DNA of 64,000 bases, taken from positions 7,173 through 71,172 of the forward strand of contig CAQWMM010000003.1 of assembly GCA_948907985.1 (NCBI GenBank). Reading direction: 5' to 3'. The notes beneath the pieces were generated by a model. The model worked only from the letters and a program-made list of their open reading frames with translations, had not been told where the DNA came from and did no database searches. A program made the translations under genes and the position numbers. The stretch is from an uncultured Bacillota bacterium (GTDB taxonomy: Bacteria; Bacillota; Dehalobacteriia; UBA4068; UBA4997). This document shows positions 2,515-62,963 of this stretch, piece by piece (position 1 is the first letter of the stretch; every line of letters begins with the position of its first letter).

Positions 2515-2781
2515 CTAGTTAGCGCCCTGGCTGCAACAGAATTTTTGTTTGACAGAGTTGATTTTGTTCTGCTCTGCCTGGTCCGGGGAATACCAGCCTT
2601 TGGCGGACATTTTGTTGTAGATATTGTCTTGAATGGCCAGCGAATTGTTAAGGGCGCTGTTGAAAGTTTGATGCACGTTGGCGGTGGAGGATTCGATAGC
2701 GCCGTGCATATAGAGATCGCAGACGCCTTTTTCCAGCAGCAGCATATTTTCCATCAGGTTTTTATCGTTATTGTTGTTCAT
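2515..2781 (-). CDS. Spore coat protein F (Coat_F domain) family protein, 88 aa.
   Basis: The protein carries Coat_F-like motifs (LLLEKGVCDLYMHGAIESST…MSAKGWYSPDQAEQNKINSVKQKF). An RBS (AAGGAGG) sits upstream of the ATG. Confidence 0.5.
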   Translation of the reverse strand: MNNNNDKNLMENMLLLEKGVCDLYMHGAIESSTANVHQTFNSALNNSLAIQDNIYNKMSAKGWYSPDQAEQNKINSVKQKFCCSQGAN

Positions 2782-2793
2782 GGGGGGCCTCCT

Positions 2794-2967
2794 TTACAGC
2801 AGACTGAAAAAGCTTTGATAAATTTGTTGGTTCTTTTGCGCCATTTGCTGAACGCAGGTTTTTAATTCGGCGTCTTGCAGCTGGCCGAGGGTTTCTTGGC
2901 ATTTGCTTTGAAAATACTGCGCATGGCCGAGAGCGTCTTCAATATACAGCAGTTCTTTGCTCGTCAT
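2794..2967 (-). CDS. Small hypothetical protein (57 aa) directly upstream of, and co-oriented with, the CotF-like gene.
   Basis: ATG with an AGGAGGT RBS at 6 nt spacing, giving MTSKELLYIEDALGHAQYFQ…SFFSLL. It lies 12 nt before the cotF-like start. It is shorter than the 60 aa cutoff of the ORF track. Confidence 0.35.
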   Translation of the reverse strand: MTSKELLYIEDALGHAQYFQSKCQETLGQLQDAELKTCVQQMAQKNQQIYQSFFSLL

Positions 2968-3059
2968 GGTTTGTACCTCCTGAGTAATCGTTTTGTTGTC
3001 TGTGTATAGATAGTTTGCCCGGGGCGGCGGGTTTTATTCATTTTTTTGCTTTGCCGCAT

Positions 3060-3100
3060 GATGGCATGGAATGTCCGATTGAGATGTGTTAAAATGCTAG
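3060..3100 (+). promoter_or_regulatory. Copy A of a 40 bp direct repeat that carries an extended -10 promoter (TGtTAAAAT), upstream of the small terminase gene.
   Basis: gatggcatggaatgtccgattgagatgtgttaaaatg matches 4780-4819 at 37 of 40 positions. The TGn plus -10 sits at the same offset in both copies. Confidence 0.45.
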
Positions 3101-3135
3101 TATAAAAAAATATGAAAAATTTTAGGGGGGATTAT

Positions 3136-3363
3136 ATGGTGGAAAAAGCCAGGCGGGCAGTGGCCTGCAAAACGGAGATTATGCAGTTTTTGACGGAGGT
3201 GATGCGCGGCGAGCTGGACGCGCCCAAGGTGAGCGAGCGAACCAAGGCGGCGGAACTGTTGGGGCGCAGCAAGCATATTTTTTCTGATAAGGCGGAGAAA
3301 AATAAAGAGGCCGAGCGGGCGTTGGAGGTGAGAATTTGGGGCGAGGATGATTTGGCGGATTGA
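3136..3363 (+). CDS. Phage small terminase subunit, PBSX XtmA-like, truncated. Only the C-terminal region is present and the N-terminal HTH DNA-binding domain is absent.
   Basis: EIMQFLTEVMRGEL…PKVSERTKAAELLGRS resembles the C-terminal half of XtmA/Terminase_2. An in-frame stop at 3103-3105 prevents any N-terminal extension. RBS AGGGGGG precedes the ATG at 3136. Confidence 0.55.
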   Translation: MVEKARRAVACKTEIMQFLTEVMRGELDAPKVSERTKAAELLGRSKHIFSDKAEKNKEAERALEVRIWGEDDLAD

Positions 3364-4628
3364 GATTGGCCGTGGGGCGGAAAGGCGGTGAGGGTGTGCA
3401 GGAAATATATCTGCCGGATTTGGTGGGCGGAGGTTATCGGGATTTTTGGCATTTTACCGGCCGCTACCGCGTGGTGAAAGGCAGCCGGGCCAGCAAGAAA
3501 TCCAAAACGACGGCGCTTAATTTGATTTGGCGGCTGCTACGCCTGCCGCAGACCAATTTGTTGGTGGTGCGCAAAACTTACCGCTCTTTGCGAGATTCGT
3601 GCTATGCGGAACTTTGCTGGGCAATCCGGCGGCTGGGCGTGGAAGCGGCCTGGCAGCGCCGGGAGGAGCCTTTGGAACTGACCTATTTGCCGACGGGGCA
3701 GAAGATCTTTTTTCGGGGGTTGGATGACCCGCAAAAAATAACTTCGATTGCCGCGCGGCAGGGACAGCTCTGTTTTTTATGGCTGGAGGAGGCCTATGAG
3801 GTTAGCCGGGAGGAAGATTTTGCTATTTTGGATGAGAGTATTCGGGGCGAGGCCCCTTTTAAGCAGCTGACGCTGACTTTTAACCCGTGGAATGAAAACC
3901 ACTGGTTAAAGCGGCGTTTTTTTGACTGCCCGGCTAGCCCGGATATTTTGGCCAAGACGGTGGATTATCGCTGCAATGAGTTTTTGGACGAGGCCGACCG
4001 GCGCGTTTTTGCCAATATGGCCATTCAGAACCCGCGGCGTTACCGGGTGGCCGGTTTGGGAGAATGGGGCGTGGCCGAGGGGCTGGTTTATGAAAACTGG
4101 CGCGAGGCGGACTTTGACTGGCGGGAGGCAGCCGCGGGGGCGCAGGCGCGCAGTATCTTTGGGCTGGATTTTGGTTATGTGAATGATGAGACAGCTCTGT
4201 TTTGTGGCCTGGTTGATTTGACGGCGCGGCGTATTTGGGTTTTTGATGAGATATACCGGCGGGGGTTGAGCAATGAGCAGCTTTATGCCGAGATTGTGGC
4301 TAAGGGTTATGCTAAGGAGAAAATTTGCGCGGACAGCGCCGAGCCGAAGAGCATTGACCGCCTGCGGGAACTGGGCTTGAGCCGGATTAAGCCTGCGCGC
4401 AAGGGAGCGGACAGCGTGCGGCACGGAATTGACTTTTTGCAGGGTTTTGAAATTTTGGTATCGCCGCGCTGCCCCAATTTTTTGGCCGAGATCAGCGCGT
4501 ATAGCTGGCAGACAGACAAAAATGGCCGGCTGCTGAATGTGCCGGAGGACGGGCATAATCATTTGATGGACGCGATGCGTTATGCGGCGGAGGATTTGCT
4601 GCGGGGAGCCAGTTTTAGTTTTGCCTAA
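3360..4628 (+). CDS. Phage large terminase subunit, PBSX/Terminase_3 family.
   Basis: A Walker-A-like YRVVKGSRASKKSKT motif and family-typical N- and C-terminal nuclease regions. It overlaps the terS stop. The start codon is uncertain (TTG at 3360 or a downstream GTG). Confidence 0.85.
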   Translation: MRLAVGRKGGEGVQEIYLPDLVGGGYRDFWHFTGRYRVVKGSRASKKSKTTALNLIWRLLRLPQTNLLVVRKTYRSLRDSCYAELCWAIRRLGVEAAWQRREEPLELTYLPTGQKIFFRGLDDPQKITSIAARQGQLCFLWLEEAYEVSREEDFAILDESIRGEAPFKQLTLTFNPWNENHWLKRRFFDCPASPDILAKTVDYRCNEFLDEADRRVFANMAIQNPRRYRVAGLGEWGVAEGLVYENWREADFDWREAAAGAQARSIFGLDFGYVNDETALFCGLVDLTARRIWVFDEIYRRGLSNEQLYAEIVAKGYAKEKICADSAEPKSIDRLRELGLSRIKPARKGADSVRHGIDFLQGFEILVSPRCPNFLAEISAYSWQTDKNGRLLNVPEDGHNHLMDAMRYAAEDLLRGASFSFA

Positions 4629-4631
4629 AAA

Positions 4632-4750
4632 AGTTCACTAGTACTCCATCTGCTTTGTCATTAGGCTGTTTGGCTTCGTCAACGTACTATTAGTACGCCT
4701 CCTCGCCGCACAGTCTAATTCCTCGCATTTGGGGCACTATTGAACTTTTT
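4632..4750 (+). other. Structured intergenic element between terL and portal. A long-range stem (agttcactagtac…ggcactattgaact) is followed by TTTTT. It encloses a 29 nt palindrome-containing motif.
   Basis: The outer complementary arms match at 11 of 13 positions. A U-run lies at 4746-4750. The internal perfect palindrome is CGTACTATTAGTACG. Confidence 0.35.
4676..4704 (+). repeat. 29 nt motif tcgtcaacgtactattagtacgcctcctc (7-1-7 palindrome plus a CCTCCTC tail), copy 1.
   Basis: Its reverse complement recurs at 29205-29233 with one mismatch. Confidence 0.6.
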
Positions 4751-4779
4751 AGTTTAGTAAAATATCCTTAGGAAAAAAA

Positions 4780-4819
4780 GATGGCATGGAATGTCCGATT
4801 GTGATGTGTTAGAATGGTA
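4780..4819 (+). promoter_or_regulatory. Copy B of the 40 bp repeat with an extended -10 (TGtTAGAAT), upstream of the portal gene.
   Basis: It matches 3060-3100. A strong RBS (GAGGAGGG) lies downstream. Confidence 0.45.
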
Positions 4820-4875
4820 TCATCAGGAAAGAATGAGAGCAACAGAAAAAGATTGAGGAGGGATGAAAAATTATA

Positions 4876-6366
4876 ATGCAAAAAATTGCCGATGCGTGCC
4901 GCAGGCTGAGTTCAGCCGGCGGTTTTTTGTACGCCGGAAAAGGCGGGCAGCCCGAGGAGCTGGAGGTGTTGGCCTGGGAACTGGAACGCTGGCTGACCTC
5001 GGAGCGGCGGCGTTGGATGGTGTTGGGCGAAGAATATTTTGCCGGCCGGCAGGATATTCTGCGGGAGCAGCGCCTGGTGATTGGGCGCGGCGGCCAGTTG
5101 GAGCCGGCCCAAAATCTGCCGAATAACCGGCTGGTGAATAATCAGTATGCCAAGTTGGTGAACCAGAAAACCAACTATATGTTGGGGCAACCGATTAGCT
5201 GGGAGGCGGAATGCCCAAAATTTGCCGACGCGTTGAGCCGGGTTTTTGACCGGACGTTTATGCGGCTGTTAAAAAGGCTGGGCAAGGATTGTTATAATCA
5301 GGGGATTGCCTGGCTTTATCCGTATATTGATTTGAGCGGGCGGCTGGCCTTTGCCCGCTTTGGCGGCCGGGAGATTTTGCCCTTTTGGGCGGACGCGGAA
5401 CATAATATTTTAACGGGCGCTTTGCGTTTGTTTGGCCGGGAGGTTTGGCGGCGGGGGCGGCTGCAAACCGTTTGGGGCGTGGAAGTGTATGATAGCGGCG
5501 GGGTGCGCCGGTTTGGCTGGGAGCCGGGGGCCGGCAGGCTGACGGCCTGGCAGTGGGACGCGCCGGGCGAGCGAGCGGACAATTCGGCGGCGGGCCGGCG
5601 GCTGGCTTATTTGCGGCATCGGACGGCGGCTGGTGGCTGGGAGGAATTTAATTGGCAGCGCGTGCCGTTGATTCCTTTTAAGCTGAATGAAAGGGAACAG
5701 CCTTTGATCTGCCGGGTGAAATCCTTGCAGGACGCGCTGAATACCATGTTATCTGGTTTTGAAAACGTTATGCAGGAAGACAGCCGCAACACAATTTTGG
5801 TGATTAAAAATTATGACGGTACGGATTTGGCGGAGTTTCGACATAATTTGGCGGCGTTTGGGGCGGTTAAGGTGAAAACGATCGACGGCGCGGAGGGCGG
5901 TATTGACAGCCTGGCCGTTGAAGTGGACGCCGGCAATTATCAGGCTATTCTGGAACTTTTGCAGCGGGCGATTATTGAAAACGGTTTGGGGTTTGATTCT
6001 AAGCTGGACCGGGCTTATCGGGCGGCCAATGAGTTGAATATTAAATCAATGTATAGCGACATATGCCTGGACGCTAACGATTTGGAAACTGAATGGCAGG
6101 CCAGTTTTACCGACTTGCTGTGGTTTGTGAAACGCTATCTGGCGATGAGCGGACAGGGCGATTTTCTGGATTGTGGCTGGCGGCTGATTTTTAACCGGGA
6201 CATTATGATTGACGAAAGCGAGGTTATTGACAACTGTTTGAAATCCCGCGGGCTGCTTTCGGATAAATCAATTATTGCCCAGCACCCCTGGGTGAACGAC
6301 GTGGAGGGCGAGCTGCGCCGTTTGCAGGCGCAGGCCAAACAGGAAAATGACGAGGCGCAGTTATGA
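4876..6366 (+). CDS. Phage portal protein, SPP1 gp6-like.
   Basis: NNRLVNNQYAKLVNQKTNYMLGQP is portal-family motif text. The protein is 496 aa and sits immediately after terL. The exact start is ambiguous, because the RBS is 15 nt from the ATG. Confidence 0.8.
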   Translation: MQKIADACRRLSSAGGFLYAGKGGQPEELEVLAWELERWLTSERRRWMVLGEEYFAGRQDILREQRLVIGRGGQLEPAQNLPNNRLVNNQYAKLVNQKTNYMLGQPISWEAECPKFADALSRVFDRTFMRLLKRLGKDCYNQGIAWLYPYIDLSGRLAFARFGGREILPFWADAEHNILTGALRLFGREVWRRGRLQTVWGVEVYDSGGVRRFGWEPGAGRLTAWQWDAPGERADNSAAGRRLAYLRHRTAAGGWEEFNWQRVPLIPFKLNEREQPLICRVKSLQDALNTMLSGFENVMQEDSRNTILVIKNYDGTDLAEFRHNLAAFGAVKVKTIDGAEGGIDSLAVEVDAGNYQAILELLQRAIIENGLGFDSKLDRAYRAANELNIKSMYSDICLDANDLETEWQASFTDLLWFVKRYLAMSGQGDFLDCGWRLIFNRDIMIDESEVIDNCLKSRGLLSDKSIIAQHPWVNDVEGELRRLQAQAKQENDEAQL

Positions 6367-7316
6367 AACAGTTTGATTTGTTGATTGGCAACGGCGAAGA
6401 CTGGCTGAGGCCGCAGGTTTTAAGCGGCCTGCGCTTGCAGCGGGGGGCTAACGCGGCGGCGGTGTTGGATTTTGCGGTGCTTAAAAACGGTATGCTTAAC
6501 TTTTTGGAGGGCGCGCCGGTGCGGCTGTTGGTTGACGGGCAGGTGATTTTTGCCGGGCGGGTGTTTGCCAAAAAGCGCAGTCAGCCGGAAATTATTCAGG
6601 TTCGGGCTTATGACCAGCTGCGTTATTTGCAAAACCGGGACTGCTGCGTTATGCAGGATTTTTCGCCGGGGGATTTGCTGCGGCGGATTTGCAGCGAGAA
6701 TAATTTGCAGATTGGAACGGTGGCGGATTGTGGGGTGCGCCTGTCGGCGCATAGCTTTGACAACCGGCGCTATCTGGATATGCTGGGGGAGGTGTTGAAT
6801 GAGGTTTGGCAGGCCAAGGGCAGCCGCTATTTTGTTTATGACGAGGCCGGCAAAATCTGCCTGCGGAGCTGCTGGGATTTGCGGGTGAATATTCTGTTGG
6901 CGGAGAACTGCATTGGCGGCTATGAATATGCTACCTCGGTGGACGGACAAACCTTTAACCGGGTTAAGGTGATTTATGAGGATAAGCGCAAGGGCCTGCG
7001 CAAGGAGTTTGTGGCGGAGAACCGGGAGCGAATTGACGATTGGGGGCCATTGCAGCTGGTGAGCAAGAGCGCCGACGCTAGGCAGCAGACTTATAGCCGG
7101 GCCAGAGAACTTTTGCAGGCTTATCAGCGGCGGCAGGAAAGCCTGGTGGTGCGGGACGCGCCAGGGGATTGGCGGGTACGCGGCGGCGGCATGGTTGGCC
7201 TGCGTTTGAATTTGGGCGAGCAGCTGGTGGACTGTTGGGCGTTGGTGAAAAGAGCGGAGCACAGAATTGTGGCGGGAAATTGTTTGATGAATTTAAACCT
7301 GGAGTGTATATATTAA
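6363..7316 (+). CDS. XkdQ/YqbQ-family phage tail protein (late-control-D/hub-like).
   Basis: Recalled similarity to B. subtilis XkdQ: GAPVRLLVDGQVIFAGRVF…IQVRAYDQLRYLQN…ESLVVRDAPGD parallels GDGIKFYWKGKLLFLGAVY…LVAYDDIWYLANN…ESLSVTTIG. Confidence 0.6.
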   Translation: MKQFDLLIGNGEDWLRPQVLSGLRLQRGANAAAVLDFAVLKNGMLNFLEGAPVRLLVDGQVIFAGRVFAKKRSQPEIIQVRAYDQLRYLQNRDCCVMQDFSPGDLLRRICSENNLQIGTVADCGVRLSAHSFDNRRYLDMLGEVLNEVWQAKGSRYFVYDEAGKICLRSCWDLRVNILLAENCIGGYEYATSVDGQTFNRVKVIYEDKRKGLRKEFVAENRERIDDWGPLQLVSKSADARQQTYSRARELLQAYQRRQESLVVRDAPGDWRVRGGGMVGLRLNLGEQLVDCWALVKRAEHRIVAGNCLMNLNLECIY

Positions 7317-7359
7317 GCTGACATATTAAATATATATGAATTTTGGGGAGGGGTGAGAA

Positions 7360-7806
7360 ATGTATCATTATTTTATTGGCGATGTGGAGCTGCCGCTGGC
7401 GCCGGAAAAATACAGCCTGAAGATTTGCCAGAATAATCAGCTGGTGCAGCTGGCCGACGGCGGCGAAATGAACCTTTTGCGGCCGGCGGGGCTTAGGGAA
7501 ATCAGCTTTGAATTGCTGCTGCCCTATTTTGAGGATTCGCCGCTGCTGCGCAACGGGGTTAAGGTTTTTAAGCCAATTTATTATTTGAACCGTCTGGCGG
7601 AATGGGCAGCGGCGGGGGAGCCTAGACGGCTGATTATTTATCGCTCGCTGCCGAACGGCGAGGAAATTTTTAATACCAGTATACTGGTGAGTTTGGAGGA
7701 TTATCAGGTTTTGGAGGCGGCTGATTTGGGCTTTGACGTGCGGGTGGCTCTGCGGCTGCGCGAATATCAGGAAAAGGTTTGCCAGAAATATGTGGGCGGC
7801 TTATAG
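7360..7806 (+). CDS. Hypothetical phage protein (tail/baseplate module), 148 aa.
   Basis: It lies between the XkdQ-like gene and a DUF2577-like ORF, has coding-like codon usage, and follows an RBS-like GGGGAGGGGTGAG. Confidence 0.4.
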   Translation: MYHYFIGDVELPLAPEKYSLKICQNNQLVQLADGGEMNLLRPAGLREISFELLLPYFEDSPLLRNGVKVFKPIYYLNRLAEWAAAGEPRRLIIYRSLPNGEEIFNTSILVSLEDYQVLEAADLGFDVRVALRLREYQEKVCQKYVGGL

Positions 7807-12627: not shown

Positions 12628-12650
12628 ATTTTATAATGGAGGGAAGAAGT

Positions 12651-13958
12651 ATGGCGTTTGGTGGCGGAAGTTTTGTAACGCAAAATAAAATTTTGCCCGG
12701 GGTTTATGTGAATGTTAATCAGCAGAGCCGGGCTGGTTCTAACGTGTCTGAGCGGGGCGTGGCTGCTTTAGGCCTGGAGCTGGACTGGGGGCCGGAGGGC
12801 GAGCCCTTTTTTGTGGAGGCCGGCGAGTTTAGGAGCAAGGCGCAAAAGCTGTTTGGTTATGCTTATGGTGATGAAAAGCTGAAAGGGCTGCGGGATTTGT
12901 TTCTGCACGCGGGGGGTTGTTATTTTTATCGTTTGAATGGCGGCGCTAAGGCGGGCTGCGCTTTGAGCACGGCCAAATACAGCGGCGAGCGGGGCAACGC
13001 GCTGACGGTGAAGGTGGAGGCTGGGCCGGAACCGGGCGGCGGTTTTGAGGTTATAACTTTTTTGGCCGGCCAGGAGATTGACCGCCAGCAGGTGAGCAGC
13101 GCCGCCGCTTTGCGGGATAATGATTTTGTTTGTTGGAAAAAAGACGCGGAACTGACGGCTGACAGTTATGTTCAGCTGACCGGAGGCAGCAGCAAGGCTA
13201 AGGCGGCCGCGGAGGATTATCAAACGATGCTTGAGGCGTTGACGGAATGTGATTTTAACGTTTTGGGCTGTTTGAGCACGGAGCAGGCCGTGAAAACTTT
13301 GCTGGCCAAGTATACCAGAGAACAGCGCGAGGATAACGGGCGCAAGTTCCAGACGGTGCTTTATGATTATGGGGCTAATTATGAGGGCGTGATTTCAGTG
13401 GGCTGCCCGGCGGCGGAAACTGATTGGCCGGCCAGCGCGTTGGTTTATTGGGTGTTGGGCGCGGAAGCCGGCTGCGCGGTGAACGCTACGCTGACCAATG
13501 CCGTTTACGACGGGGAGATTAAGGCGCAGGCGGTAAGCGGGCAGCGGAATTTGCAGCAGGCCCTGTTGGACGGGAAACTGGTTTTGCACCGTTTGAACGG
13601 CGAACTTCGGGTTTTGGAGGACGTGAACTCTCTGGTGGGCTGGCAGGAGAGCGGCCAGGAAGACCGGCGCTTTAATCAGACGATCAGAGTGCTGGACCAG
13701 ATTGTGCTGGATTTGGCCGGCCTGTTTTATCAGCGTTATTTGGGAATTGTGCCTAATGACAACGCCGGGCGCATTAGCCTGTGGAGCGATGTGGTGGCTT
13801 ACTTCCGCAAGCTGGAGGGGCTGCGCGCTATCGAGGGCTTTTCTACCGACGACGTGGCGGTGGAGCAGGGCGAAAATAAAAAAGCGGTGGTGGTTTCGGT
13901 CCGTCTGAACGTAACCAACGCGATGTCGCAGTTATACCTGACGGTTACTTTTAACTAA
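12651..13958 (+). CDS. Phage tail sheath protein (XkdK-like).
   Basis: A ~435 aa protein with a sheath-family N-terminus (MAFGGGSFVTQNKILPGVYVNVN). GGAGGG RBS. Confidence 0.85.
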   Translation: MAFGGGSFVTQNKILPGVYVNVNQQSRAGSNVSERGVAALGLELDWGPEGEPFFVEAGEFRSKAQKLFGYAYGDEKLKGLRDLFLHAGGCYFYRLNGGAKAGCALSTAKYSGERGNALTVKVEAGPEPGGGFEVITFLAGQEIDRQQVSSAAALRDNDFVCWKKDAELTADSYVQLTGGSSKAKAAAEDYQTMLEALTECDFNVLGCLSTEQAVKTLLAKYTREQREDNGRKFQTVLYDYGANYEGVISVGCPAAETDWPASALVYWVLGAEAGCAVNATLTNAVYDGEIKAQAVSGQRNLQQALLDGKLVLHRLNGELRVLEDVNSLVGWQESGQEDRRFNQTIRVLDQIVLDLAGLFYQRYLGIVPNDNAGRISLWSDVVAYFRKLEGLRAIEGFSTDDVAVEQGENKKAVVVSVRLNVTNAMSQLYLTVTFN

Positions 13959-28450: not shown

Positions 28451-29107
28451 TTAGGCTCCTTTATTCAACCTGTCCCTAAGCAGACGGCAGCCGGGCAGCA
28501 GCAAGCCGCCCAGGGCGTTGCCCAGAGTCATAATCAGCAGCCAAAGCCAGGTGTGGGTTGACCAGCAGCCGGCCATGGCAAAATAAAACATATTGGCGAC
28601 GCAATGTTCAAAACCGCAGAGGATAAACACCGAAACGCCGAAAAACAGCCCCAGATATTTGCCCAGCTCGTGCCCATTGGTGCGGAAACCGTCTACGGCT
28701 ATGTACATCAAAATGTTGCAGAAGACAGCCAGAATAAAAACGCTAAGCGCGGAATCCGCCAGTTTGATTTGGGCCAGAGCGGCGGCTTTTTCGGCAAAAG
28801 CCGGGGCCAGACGCGTCAGCCGCAGCAGCGCGGCGACGGCGCAGGTTCCGGCCAGGTTGCCCAGCCAAACGGTCAGCAGAAAGGGCAGATAAGCGGCGGG
28901 GGGATTTTCCAGCGCATAGCCTACCTTGCCGGTGAAGAGGTTGAAGCCGTTGACGCAGACGGTGAACAGGCCGACGGTGAAGAACAACGCGCCGATGATT
29001 TTGTTATCCAGCGCCAAAAAAACCGCGCCGCCCAGGGCAATCGCCAGGCCGGCCAAAACGGCGTAAATGAAATCGGCCAAAAGGCTGGGGAAATTTTTTT
29101 CTTTCAT
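28451..29107 (-). CDS. Formate/nitrite transporter (FNT) family channel.
   Basis: A six-transmembrane FNT topology with a GFEHCVANMF motif. Its stop lies 2 nt before the sufC start. Confidence 0.8.
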   Translation of the reverse strand: MKEKNFPSLLADFIYAVLAGLAIALGGAVFLALDNKIIGALFFTVGLFTVCVNGFNLFTGKVGYALENPPAAYLPFLLTVWLGNLAGTCAVAALLRLTRLAPAFAEKAAALAQIKLADSALSVFILAVFCNILMYIAVDGFRTNGHELGKYLGLFFGVSVFILCGFEHCVANMFYFAMAGCWSTHTWLWLLIMTLGNALGGLLLPGCRLLRDRLNKGA

Positions 29108-29204
29108 ATTTATATTATCCTTAATATGTTAAGATTATTTAAGATGTAAAATGGATATAAGGCTGTTGAGAAATGTTCAGATTCAAATGAATCGCAAGCG
29201 AGAT

Positions 29205-29233
29205 GAGGAGGCGTACTAATAGTACGTCGACGA
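29205..29233 (-). repeat. Copy 2 (reverse orientation) of the 29 nt palindromic motif, in the FNT-sufCD promoter/leader region.
   Basis: It matches the reverse complement of 4676-4704 at 28 of 29 positions. Local hairpins are nearby (cgacga-ttcgag-tcgtcg; gattca-aa-tgaatc). Confidence 0.6.
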
Positions 29234-29284
29234 TTCGAGTCGTCGCGATGAATTTGAAGATGGGCGTTTATCAACAGTCTTTAT

Positions 29285-29767
29285 TTATTGCCAGTTTTTG
29301 CAGACATTAACCCATTTGAGGCTGCCGCTTAGCTTTTCCAACTCCGCCAGATTAAGGCGCACCGCGCTGTTGCTGCTGCCCGCCGCGGGATAAACGATCT
29401 CAAAGCGGCGCAGCGATTCGTCCAGATAGACGTCAACCCCAGGGTTGACGGCAAAGGGGCATACGCCGCCCACCGCGTGGCCGATCAACTCTTCGGCCTG
29501 GTCGGCGGGAACCATTTTGGCTTTAAAGCCAAATTCCTGTTTGAAACGGGAGTTGTCCACTTTGGCGTCGCCGGCGGCCACCACCAGCAGACAGGCGGCC
29601 TCTGGCCCGGGCTGTAAAAAGGCCAGGCTTTTGGCAATATGGGCCGGCTGGCAGCCTACTGCCTGCGCGGCCAGTTCAACCGTAGCGCTGGCGCCGGGTT
29701 CGCTAAATTCCATAATCCGCTCCGCCATACCCTGGGCCGCCAGATATTGTTTAACTTTTTCCAGCAT
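29285..29767 (-). CDS. ybaK: YbaK/ProX-type aminoacyl-tRNA deacylase.
   Basis: A YbaK editing-domain sequence, 160 aa. Confidence 0.75.
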   Translation of the reverse strand: MLEKVKQYLAAQGMAERIMEFSEPGASATVELAAQAVGCQPAHIAKSLAFLQPGPEAACLLVVAAGDAKVDNSRFKQEFGFKAKMVPADQAEELIGHAVGGVCPFAVNPGVDVYLDESLRRFEIVYPAAGSSNSAVRLNLAELEKLSGSLKWVNVCKNWQ

Positions 29768-62605: not shown

Positions 62606-62963
62606 GGGGGTGTTTTCTGGATTCGACGTGGGAAGGATTGGTTGGATAAGCGAGCCGGGGACGTCATCAGCCCGTTAAACTATGGCAAAAGTCATTTTTA
62701 AATGGCAACAGAAACAATTTAGCTTTAGCAGCTTAATCGCTACCTCTGCCTGGGCCCAGCTTGCCGGCCGGGGCAAAGAGGTCATCCATGCAAGCTATTC
62801 TGGCGCCGCCTGCCCGGCGGCGCTGGCAGAAAAATTTTGGGCTGGCGGTTTTGAAGATTTGTTTGCTGCTCTTGAAACCGTAAGATTTGGCAACAAAATA
62901 CGCTCGTAGAAAGTCTGATGGGTTCTCTTGCGGACGCGGGTTCAACTCCCGCCACCTCCACCA
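62606..62963 (+). ncRNA. ssrA: tmRNA (transfer-messenger RNA).
   Basis: The 5' end GGGGGUGUUUUCUGGAUUCGACG pairs with the 3' end CACCUCC-A-CCA. A T-arm GGACGCGGGTTCAACTCCCGCC is present. The tag ORF ends …NLALAA-TAA. Confidence 0.85.

Follow-up and report, generated by a model that had tools for sequence, protein, structure and literature searches.

Introduction

Bacterial MITEs, or miniature inverted-repeat transposable elements, are non-coding sequences of less than 200 bp whose transcripts are long stem-loops; TA ends and target duplications are frequent among them, they show filled and empty sites, and they often have no known transposase (PMC2229807). Two such kinds are closest to the element described here. 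ERIC (enterobacterial repetitive intergenic consensus) sequences are co-transcribed with orientation-dependent effects, and the hairpins of the Correia elements of Neisseria are processed by RNase III (PMC2229807). Here we analyse a 64,000-nt stretch of the genome of an uncultured Bacillota bacterium (contig CAQWMM010000003.1, positions 7,173 to 71,172; hereafter the window), in which a 123-nt imperfect hairpin occurs twice: copy A lies between the phage genes terL and portal, and copy B between a ybaK-like gene and a formate/nitrite transporter (FNT) gene. Both are likely to be copies of a new family of non-coding, non-autonomous mobile hairpins of ~105–150 nt, similar in kind to ERIC and Correia elements.

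Other hairpins at the ends of genes also invite comparison. After ERIC, itself described with a conserved central inverted repeat, and Correia, the next closest kinds are the REP/REPIN sequences, followed by attC sites, for their placement and their single-strand logic, and, with respect to the flanks of copy A, intrinsic terminators. REP, BIME and REPIN sequences are palindromes at gene 3′ ends which form hairpins in mRNA or single-stranded DNA (ssDNA), can make the mRNA upstream more stable, and owe their mobility to an HUH enzyme (RAYT) that works in trans on single strands. REPs are ~35 nt long with a conserved GTAG head, REPINs are doublets in which the two ends are conserved, and these sequences are species-specific and present in hundreds of copies. 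attC sites are imperfect hairpins of 57–141 nt which lie directly after the stop codon of an open reading frame (ORF) in a fixed orientation and are recognised as folded single strands; their sequence is free while their structure is kept, and the recombinogenic strand is antisense to the ORF.

Results

A hairpin shared by two sites

The original prediction had described a 29-nt motif, with a perfect 7-1-7 palindrome, shared by the terL–portal gap and the FNT–sufC–sufD promoter, as well as a long-range stem closed by UUUUU at the first of these sites. The motif, its coordinates and the stem all agree with the sequence. The core tcgtcaacgtactattagtacgcctcctc of copy A recurs on the opposite strand as its reverse complement with a single A/G difference (28/29), and a scan with the core 22-mer, allowing ≤3 mismatches, gave exactly 2 matches in the window as compared with 0.00 in 100 dinucleotide-preserving shuffles. 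The sequence around the core of copy A folds into a 123-nt rod (Table 1), and 0/200 shuffles were equally stable; copy B folds to the same rod shape. The distance from the 5′ base to the core is 48 nt in both hairpins. Beyond the core, the two copies have arms that are only 50–54% identical and are nevertheless paired in each. By sequence inspection, the elements contain no conserved ORF or start codon on either strand.

Each copy begins at the stop codon of the gene upstream and is oriented like that gene. The 5′ base of copy A is the last base of the terL stop codon TAA (4626–4628) and its 3′ end is the UUUUU, while the 5′ base of copy B is the final base of a duplicated TAAATAA that holds the ybaK stop codon. 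Copy B does lie upstream of FNT and of the SufC-like and SufBD-like genes that come after it (Pfam), as had been proposed, but its description as a promoter motif is not supported: it stands directly after the ybaK stop codon, on the same strand, and no observation identifies it as a promoter.

Both copies are recent insertions

Both window copies are recent insertions that are missing in close relatives. In contigs with 92% and 84% identical FNT, the ybaK–FNT gap measures 29–44 nt and holds a single TAAATAA, whose TAA is the ybaK stop codon, and in a relative with 79% identical FNT the two genes overlap. The window has 146 extra nt at this place, with TAAATAA on both sides, and the three empty sites (L113, L114/L115 and L116; L numbers designate loci) have one TAAATAA each. 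The inserted unit at B consists of the hairpin and a 17-nt tail (Table 1), and the inserted units measure ~139–140 nt.

For copy A, the terL–portal gap is 247 nt in the window and 236 nt in a prophage whose portal is 90% identical (L126), as opposed to 21 nt in a prophage whose portal is 79% identical (L128); in related phage loci the gap measures 2–91 nt wherever the next long ORF could be found. The element is at the same place in the 90% relative (L126/L127) and in all contigs encoding an identical portal. Two direct repeats flank the insertion, one of 7 bp and one of 9 bp, and the choice between them is ambiguous (Table 1). The tail that follows hairpin A, AGTTTAGTAAAATATCCTTAGGA, may belong to the inserted unit.

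Evidence of movement also comes from other genomes. Copies in metagenome-assembled genomes (MAGs) of Desulfobacterota are ~97% identical at unrelated loci, near-identical copies occur within the phage contig L194, and window copy B resembles copies found after cbiC in other Firmicutes. The near-identity at unrelated loci and the likeness of B to the post-cbiC copies indicate that the whole hairpin is the mobile unit. That the element moves, or has moved recently, is shown by the filled and empty sites in close relatives, the near-identical copies at unrelated loci of one genome, the related copies at non-homologous loci of different genomes, and a patchy distribution over phyla and phages. The motif common to the prophage and the FNT–suf locus is the product of two independent insertions, and not of shared regulation.

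The structure, including the palindrome, is maintained by compensatory change

A covariance model, CM R1, was built from six diverse members with the fold of copy A as its structure; its E-values are rough. With filters off, it found only the two known copies in the window (112 and 52 bits). Across 42 model-aligned members, 80.1% of cells are standard pairs, compared with 57.6% when partners are shuffled, and in 30 of 34 pairs both partners have changed. Covariation scores 0.482, compared with 0.147 in shuffles (0/500 shuffles) and with 0.05–0.14 when the 3′ partners are slid by 1–3 columns. The counts for the members are somewhat inflated, having been made on a model-fitted alignment of related sequences.

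Plain MAFFT alignments, which are not fitted to the model, provided a second look at compensation. The subfamily of copy B (window B, L013/L018/L119 and L120) comprises members that are 76–81% identical and lie at different loci. In these members UUCAAAU/AUUUGAA alternates with UUUGAA/UUCAAA and UUUGGG/CCCAAA, and AUCGC/GCGAU alternates with UUCAC/GUGAA and GUCAC/GUGAC. The orthologous copy of A in the related prophage L126 shows UAGU/ACUA changed to UAGC/GCUA. When RNAalifold was applied to a plain MAFFT alignment of 20 members it recovered only the palindrome stem, P4, because the arms cannot be aligned by sequence; for this reason a hand-set structure and the covariance model were used. Together these results show that the stems are held by selection on structure, with arm sequences drifting while pairing is kept.

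The palindrome itself covaries. Its CGUAC/GUACG helix is replaced by CAUAC/GUAUG in L014, by CGUAG/CUACG in L152, and by GCACU/AGUGC and AUACU/AGUAU in L194; the sixth pair changes from U–A to C–G in several members, and compensatory changes are seen at pairs 2, 5 and 6. Its loop, which would be the spacer between the half-sites of a DNA operator, varies from 2 to 6 nt across the family. The palindrome therefore behaves as a stem-loop in a single strand.

These observations bear on the original proposal that the motif is a duplex-DNA operator, at which a dimeric factor co-regulates the prophage late genes and FNT–suf. A perfect palindrome, identical at both sites, is what such an operator would offer; its GT..TA.TA..AC pattern may resemble GntR-family half-sites, and the factor might, for example, be of the GntR/YtrA type. 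The variable spacer and the covarying halves are, however, incompatible with the fixed half-site spacing required by a dimer on duplex DNA. Moreover, the palindrome is always the tip of a covarying hairpin of 110–150 nt, in no fewer than four phyla it is found behind unrelated genes, at their 3′ ends, instead of at promoters, both window sites are recent insertions, and neither site has a promoter signal above chance. We therefore regard an operator as extremely improbable.

A family spread over several phyla and their phages

An exact-core scan with the pattern CGTACTANTAGTACGCCTCC, covering one genome per species and 185,579 species, found the core at 43 loci in ~22 species-level genomes. 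The hosts include Syntrophobacterales, Syntrophorhabdales, Desulfobacterales, Geobacter, Syntrophus, Bdellovibrionota, Saccharibacteria, Peptococcaceae, Christensenellaceae and other Bacillota, and five Desulfobacterota MAGs have 3–8 exact-core matches each. These copy numbers are lower bounds, counted in 8-kb windows around exact-core matches. CM R1 found further divergent copies without the exact core in the retrieved loci; taken together, the two kinds of search gave over 55 relatives, which come from Desulfobacterota, Bdellovibrionota, Saccharibacteria, Firmicutes and phage contigs. They stem mostly from MAGs and metagenomic viral contigs, and gene calls are ORF heuristics except where checked by Pfam.

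Among viral contigs, CM R1 identified two copies in L152, one in L176, and three full copies and one partial copy in L194. The exact core had 0 matches in IMG/VR; looser core patterns gave mostly coding-sequence coincidences there, with genuine members only in L152, L176 and L194. A metagenome scan, made with too narrow a pattern, yielded 2 loci, and CM R1 found no copy in 61 phage loci encoding relatives of the window terL.

All exact-core members fold as rods of 105–170 nt with the core at the tip. The tip module, RR-CGUAC-loop-GUACG-CCUCC, is nearly invariant across the family. A second conserved feature is a 3-bp helix beside an asymmetric internal loop (5′ CAUCU-GC-UUYGUY / 3′ YCCUC-GC-AUYUGG). 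Most members keep CCUCC, and divergent ones have CCUUAC, CCUGCG or GCUCC instead. That a 20-nt tip is identical over at least four phyla implies either a highly constrained partner or a recent horizontal spread in which phages could plausibly have been the vectors.

The original prediction had suggested, as a second possibility, a small mobile or structured RNA motif, and this is supported by the filled and empty sites and by the covarying rods in several phyla. It had also reckoned that hundreds of copies per genome, as in a generic REP, or absence from related strains would speak for a repeat-element origin; the motif is indeed a repeat, and absent from relatives, but it is rare overall. An Rfam scan, as the prediction had proposed, did not place the element in a known family. 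Rfam 15 gave no match at E ≤ 10 for 4560–4900, only two chance-level matches to eukaryotic/archaeal small nucleolar RNA models for 29080–29340, and none at E ≤ 0.1 for 8 family loci; at Rfam gathering thresholds the whole window yielded the tmRNA gene and no match to the elements. BLAST of both elements against plasmid and phage collections gave no match, the core sequence, in DNA or RNA spelling, was not found in the literature searched, and concept-level searches returned general MITE literature only. The element family is previously undescribed.

Several members show additional features. In Desulfobacterota, 18–21-nt nested mini-hairpins, GTCCTTACAGGATGC, are inserted at two different positions, in the 5′ arm of L004, L005 and L019 and in the 3′ arm of L011 and L042, each between short direct repeats. 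Other Desulfobacterota copies have alternative extra stems, the GGGTACCC hairpins, and subfamilies with such additions have multiplied. At L028 (4496–4735) a full element is followed 33 nt later by a partial second copy, consisting of the 5′ arm and the core with an unrelated 3′ half, a pattern suggestive of recombination or of an insertion that was tandem or self-targeted. In L194 (IMGVR_UViG_3300035520_001426), the three full copies and the partial one lie within 5 kb of a phage head module (2600–7540). Two near-identical copies, 3351–3460 and 6215–6324, flank PBSX-like tail genes (DUF2577, XkdN-like chaperone), and this tail block sits between minor-head and scaffold genes. The layout may reflect recombination at the repeats or an assembly chimera.

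Placement and orientation relative to genes

The element follows genes in a regular manner. In 12 of 13 diverse loci with enough flanking sequence, and for both window copies, a co-oriented ORF stops 41–67 nt before the core, which places the stop at the hairpin base or within it. Of 50 members, 33 have a sense ORF of ≥100 codons whose stop is no more than 30 nt away from the 5′ end of the model, as against 8 of 50 by the mirrored antisense measure, and the median distance between stop codon and element is 13 nt in the sense direction and 94 nt in the mirror. Upstream ORFs with a Pfam match are complete and unrelated to one another (GreA, Bax1-I, CbiC, HIT, AdoHcyase, PFK, HD, HU), and gltD is also among the unrelated housekeeping genes whose stop codon precedes the module. 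The downstream gene may be co-directional or convergent. The upstream ORF often extends a few codons into the 5′ arm, with its stop codon inside (L013/L018/L119 after cbiC; L017, L027, L006), as in L013, where the gene ends with ...GAC TGC CAA TAA; the element can thus supply the last residues and the stop codon of the preceding gene. Insertion into pre-existing terminator loops was considered; L017 looks like such a case, and the pattern is not general.

Two copies at L014 lie within 1 kb on opposite strands, each behind its own gene, and window copies A and B are opposite in orientation on a uniformly GC-skewed stretch. Orientation therefore tracks transcription, and not replication. In phages, every copy lies within a structural operon and has the sense orientation: between terL and portal in the window, ahead of the major capsid gene in L152, a contig with a P22-type portal, and between scaffold and major head genes in L194.

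Such placement could also mean that the element is a cis-acting RNA module, selected for its benefit to host or phage, for which mobility is secondary. It might stabilise 3′ ends, terminate or attenuate transcription, or be processed by RNase III/RNase E, and would set the expression ratios of its neighbours, e.g., of terL to portal or of scaffold to capsid. The strict sense orientation next to stop codons is in keeping with this, as are the compensatory changes that keep the structure, orthologous copies included, the repeated placement between scaffold and major capsid genes in the unrelated phages L152 and L194, and the arrangement of A-tract, hairpin and U-tract in copy A and several others. 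ERIC and Correia transcripts provide precedents (PMC2229807). On the other hand, the element is sporadic and is missing at the same junction in relatives with 79–92% protein identity, the genes on either side of it are unrelated, the downstream one being often convergent, and a strong terminator in a phage late operon would be harmful. The weaker fold of the sense strand and the scarcity of U-tracts (see below) also count against it, and the tip identity across phyla would go unexplained. We consider a cis-acting module of this kind possible, yet on the whole unlikely.

Folding strand

In 33 of 34 members the reverse complement folds better as RNA than the sense strand. The difference averages 12.6 kcal/mol and stems from the richness in pyrimidines that the conserved loops have on the sense strand. 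Sense-strand mismatches comprise 177 pyrimidine–pyrimidine and 42 purine–purine cases. Sense A·C mismatches, which are G·U on the complement, number 134 and sense G·U pairs 95; this bias is modest and reversed in some lineages, and such near-parity would also result from neutral decay after insertion. The positions flanking P4 are A·C (37/42) and G–C or A·C on the sense strand, and G·U or G–C on the complement.

This asymmetry raises the question of whether the functional form is the folded bottom strand, as an ssDNA site for a structure-specific recombinase or an HUH-type transposase comparable to attC or to IS200/IS605 ends, with the tip and internal loops as the recognition features of the protein. 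The better fold of the complement, the purine–purine nature of its mismatches, the excess of sense A·C over G·U and the conserved A·C beside P4, which becomes G·U or G–C, are all consistent with such a site. So are the attC-like traits of 100–150 nt, imperfect pairing, a position after an ORF and a better-folding antisense strand, together with the gene block bracketed by near-identical copies in L194 and the lack of a consistent target duplication. Against this, the attC R′′/R′ boxes (RYYYAAC...GTTRRRY) are absent and it is the apex, not the base, that is conserved; no integrase or HUH gene occurs in the neighbourhoods examined; copy B was inserted by itself, with no cargo gene, and its 7-bp duplication suggests that duplex DNA was cut in a staggered manner; and orientation follows transcription rather than replication. 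The modest and locally reversed G·U/A·C asymmetry, and the possibility that the L194 layout is an assembly chimera, further weaken the argument. An ssDNA site of this type is, in our assessment, a serious rival, if an unlikely one.

Transcription and termination

Promoter and terminator scans at both sites gave nothing above chance, and a simple terminator scanner calls neither copy, as the stem and loop exceed its limits. Copy A is followed by the U-rich tract UUUUUAGUUU, and copy B has no U-run. Given that a U-tract (≥6 U in 8) follows the hairpin in only 10 of 33 members and is lacking at copy B, termination is not the common function of the family. The A6 before and U5 after the stem of copy A nevertheless indicate that this copy probably attenuates transcription from terL into portal, and terL transcripts probably end in part near 4750.

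No conserved promoter for an antisense transcript was found, and antisense transcription of phage late operons is not expected. This is relevant to the notion of an independent small RNA (sRNA) gene of ~125 nt, or of an anti-Shine–Dalgarno (anti-SD) sponge whose CCUCC/CCUC loops pair with SD sequences in trans or with the downstream SD in cis. The CCUCCUC of copy A is complementary to the portal SD, GAGGAGG (4855–4861), the loops are unpaired and pyrimidine-rich, and the hairpin and U-run of copy A could serve as the terminator of such an RNA. There is, however, no conserved promoter on either side, the SD of FNT is merely AAGGA, many copies face a convergent gene, and the copies are sporadic insertions. 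The anti-SD-like CCTCC of the original prediction is kept in most members, but it is replaced in divergent ones, such that an anti-SD role is not family-wide. An sRNA or sponge is accordingly very unlikely.

Other candidates were rejected on inspecting the sequences. A selenocysteine insertion (SECIS) or other recoding signal does not fit, as each of the three stop codons is used and a downstream extension is lacking. A small ORF behind the reverse-strand GGAGG has no conserved start codon. K-turn or loop-E motifs would require other strand lengths, the cores of hairpin or hammerhead ribozymes are absent, the likeness to a boxA/boxB-like nut site is short and weak, and that of the palindrome to a geminivirus- or pT181-like nick site is partial, with an unsupportive context.

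Genomic setting of the window copies

The interval of ~95 nt between element A and the portal start (4781–4875) is kept in the 90% relative (L126/L127) and missing in the 79% relative (L128). It holds an extended −10-like sequence, TGTTAGAAT (4807–4815), and a strong SD, GAGGAGGG (4855–4862), both kept in L126, and judging from their sequence these might restore portal expression past hairpin A. Near copy B, a weak promoter-like TTTACA-16-CATATT (29123–29150, minus strand; chance-level score) has its −35 in the tail of the copy and its −10 in native FNT-upstream sequence, and could be a hybrid promoter made by the insertion.

Positions 1 to ~19000 of the window form a phage-like structural cluster with terL, an SPP1-type portal, a YqbQ-like minor head protein and a tail sheath (12636–13958), and host genes follow from 19399 on (RluD-like pseudouridine synthase, MgsA, iPGM, AzlC). 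No integrase was seen in the window; the cluster could be a PBSX-like element or a prophage that is defective, or else its far end may lie beyond the window. A tmRNA (ssrA) gene with the tag peptide GNRNNLALAA lies at 62606–62963 (plus strand) and was found by both Rfam (165.6 bits) and ARAGORN.

Table 1 Features of the two hairpin copies and their neighbouring genes (window coordinates; MFE, minimum free energy).
Feature	Position	Strand	Evidence or remark
Copy A, 123-nt imperfect hairpin (rod)	4628..4750	+	MFE -48.2 kcal/mol, z -7.75; CM R1 112 bits, E 5e-28
Apical module of copy A, UCGUCAA - P4 hairpin CGUACUA-U-UAGUACG - CCUCCUC	4676..4704	+	Invariant part of the family; P4 at 4683-4697
5′ internal-loop motif of copy A, CCAUCUGCUUUGUC, with 3-bp helix P2 (UGC) and loop UUUGUC	4646..4659	+	Family-conserved CAUCU-GC-UUYGUY
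3′ internal-loop motif of copy A, CCUCGCAUUUGG, pairs with the 5′ motif	4721..4732	+	Family consensus YCCUC-GCA-UYUGG
23-nt tail after hairpin A, AGTTTAGTAAAATATCCTTAGGA	4751..4773	+	Shares ATATCC with copy B tail; boundaries uncertain
AAAAAAG, candidate 7-bp target duplication of copy A	4627-4633 and 4774-4780	+	Low-complexity sequence
TTTTAGTTT, alternative 9-bp repeat at copy A	4613-4621 and 4747-4755	+	Direct repeat; choice between repeats ambiguous
Copy B, 123-nt imperfect hairpin	29159..29281	-	MFE -34.1 kcal/mol, z -5.16; CM R1 51.9 bits, E 2e-11
Apical module of copy B, UCGUCGA - CGUACUAUUAGUACG - CCUCCUC	29205..29233	-	Sequence; P4 at 29212-29226
17-nt tail of copy B, ATATCCATTTTACATCT	29142..29158	-	Within inserted segment, absent from empty sites
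TAAATAA direct repeats, 7 bp, flanking the 139-nt insertion B	29287-29281 and 29141-29135	-	Empty-site comparison
terL, stop codon abuts copy A	3360..4628	+	Pfam Terminase_3, Terminase_3C
portal, starts 125 nt 3′ of hairpin A	4876..6366	+	Pfam SPP1_portal
ybaK-like aminoacyl-tRNA editing gene, stop codon (29287-29285) abuts copy B	29285..29767	-	Pfam tRNA_edit
FNT transporter gene, downstream of copy B	28451..29107	-	Pfam Form_Nir_trans

Comparison with described elements

The features of MITEs found here are a non-coding sequence of <200 bp, a single long stem-loop, and filled and empty sites. Near-identical dispersed copies are seen in the five Desulfobacterota MAGs and in L194, and 2 copies were found in the 64 kb of the window. 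As to a target duplication of fixed length with TA termini, there are 7 bp at B, an ambiguous 7 or 9 bp at A, and TA in one subfamily.

ERIC sequences share with the family a length of ~127 bp without coding capacity, an imperfect palindrome, co-transcription, long RNA stem-loops, filled and empty sites and the lack of a known transposase (PMC2229807). They differ in being confined to Enterobacteria and Vibrio, in having TA ends and duplications, and in being conserved over their full length, whereas the family keeps the sequence of just the tip and two internal loops, its arms covarying freely. The two show no likeness in sequence, and the present family crosses phyla, phages included, and lies no further than ~10 nt from stop codons, in a single orientation. 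Correia (NEMIS) elements are likewise hairpin repeats of 100–155 bp beside genes, co-transcribed and RNase III substrates, with a central integration host factor (IHF) site in the long form (PMC2229807). They have, however, conserved terminal inverted repeats of 24–26 bp, a TA duplication and hundreds of copies within a single genus, whereas the family described here has unconserved termini, a TA duplication in one subfamily and a low copy number.

The resemblance to the remaining kinds is more limited. The family has no GTAG-type head, and no RAYT gene occurs in the neighbourhoods examined, which sets it apart from REP and REPIN sequences. It shares with attC sites the placement after stop codons and a better-folding antisense strand, but attC sites conserve the R′′/R′ boxes of the base and extrahelical bases while their apex varies; here the apex is invariant, the bases are unrelated and the boxes are lacking. 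attC sites also occur in cassette arrays beside intI, whereas the family copies are solitary, that at B has no ORF, and no integrase was found nearby, which applies to the L194 block as well. The A-tract, hairpin and U-tract after a stop codon, seen in copy A and about a third of members, recall intrinsic terminators, from which the family differs by its interrupted stem of ~45 bp, its conserved tip and loops, the missing U-tract in most members and its presence inside phage late or tightly coupled operons. Taken together, the family lacks the defining properties of attC sites, REPs and operators and has most, not all, of those of MITEs.

Discussion

We have described a hairpin which has inserted, as we read the comparisons above, as a mobile unit behind the stop codons of unrelated genes. 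The element lands no more than ~10 nt from the stop codon and is oriented like the gene; in the mechanism that we propose, it would then be co-transcribed with that gene as a 3′-untranslated or intercistronic RNA hairpin. Such a hairpin could incidentally act as a terminator or attenuator, as an mRNA 3′ stabiliser or as an RNase III substrate. The invariant tip, the constant geometry and the conserved loops would be explained by recognition by a mobilising or binding protein, and this protein would act on the folded single strand, be it RNA or ssDNA, rather than on duplex DNA.

Several observations weigh against a mobile family of the ERIC/Correia kind and must be set beside the evidence of insertion. 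Classical MITEs have conserved ends and a free middle, and the present family is the reverse. A target duplication is not seen across the family, in which the longest direct repeat at the flanks averages 5.5 nt as compared with 5.0 in shuffles, and TA...TA, which flanks most copies of the Desulfobacterota subfamily, is common only there. In the 64 kb of the window just 2 copies were found. None of the 4–15-kb neighbourhoods examined showed a transposase, recombinase or reverse transcriptase, and an effort to find a partner gene by all-against-all BLASTP of neighbourhood ORFs, Pfam and PHROGs returned only paralogous operon genes and phage structural genes. The transcribed strand is the weaker folder in nearly all members, which leaves a role for the sense RNA insecure, and the paucity of U-tracts and the inflated covariation counts noted above belong in the same balance.

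A more speculative extension is that the element, beyond being a MITE in decay, is a horizontally travelling, structured nucleic-acid module with a dedicated partner, either a bottom-strand substrate for a new structure-specific recombinase or transposase or a mobile RNA module. In the former case, an enzyme of an attC-like or HUH-like system in anaerobes and their phages may target the first nucleotides after stop codons. In the latter, the tip, with its CGUAC helix flanked by G·U and its purine- or pyrimidine-rich loops, may engage conserved machinery of the cell at the end of translation or transcription. A dedicated partner would explain the 20-nt identity, the 123-nt geometry, the orientation and adjacency to stop codons and the repeat-flanked block of L194. 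We consider this extension improbable as it stands, and retain the mobile hairpin family as the likely account.

If this account is correct, the motif shared by prophage and host is a pair of mobile-element insertions and should not be annotated as shared regulation. For the window itself, the consequences would be a probable attenuator between terL and portal and a spacer of 146 nt between ybaK and FNT. More generally, the family would be a new group of hairpin repeats for anaerobic Firmicutes, Desulfobacterota, Bdellovibrionota and Saccharibacteria and their phages, groups for which, to our knowledge, almost no MITE- or REP-like elements have been described. Its conserved middle and free ends, its tip, nearly identical across phyla, its oriented insertion at stop codons and its copies within phage structural operons would point to recognition on a folded single strand. 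The elements would create terminator-like or processing hairpins in operons, and L194 illustrates how they may give rise to recombination between phage genomes, or to chimeras in their assembly. They would represent a compact, portable RNA or DNA hairpin with a measurable effect on the expression of neighbouring genes.

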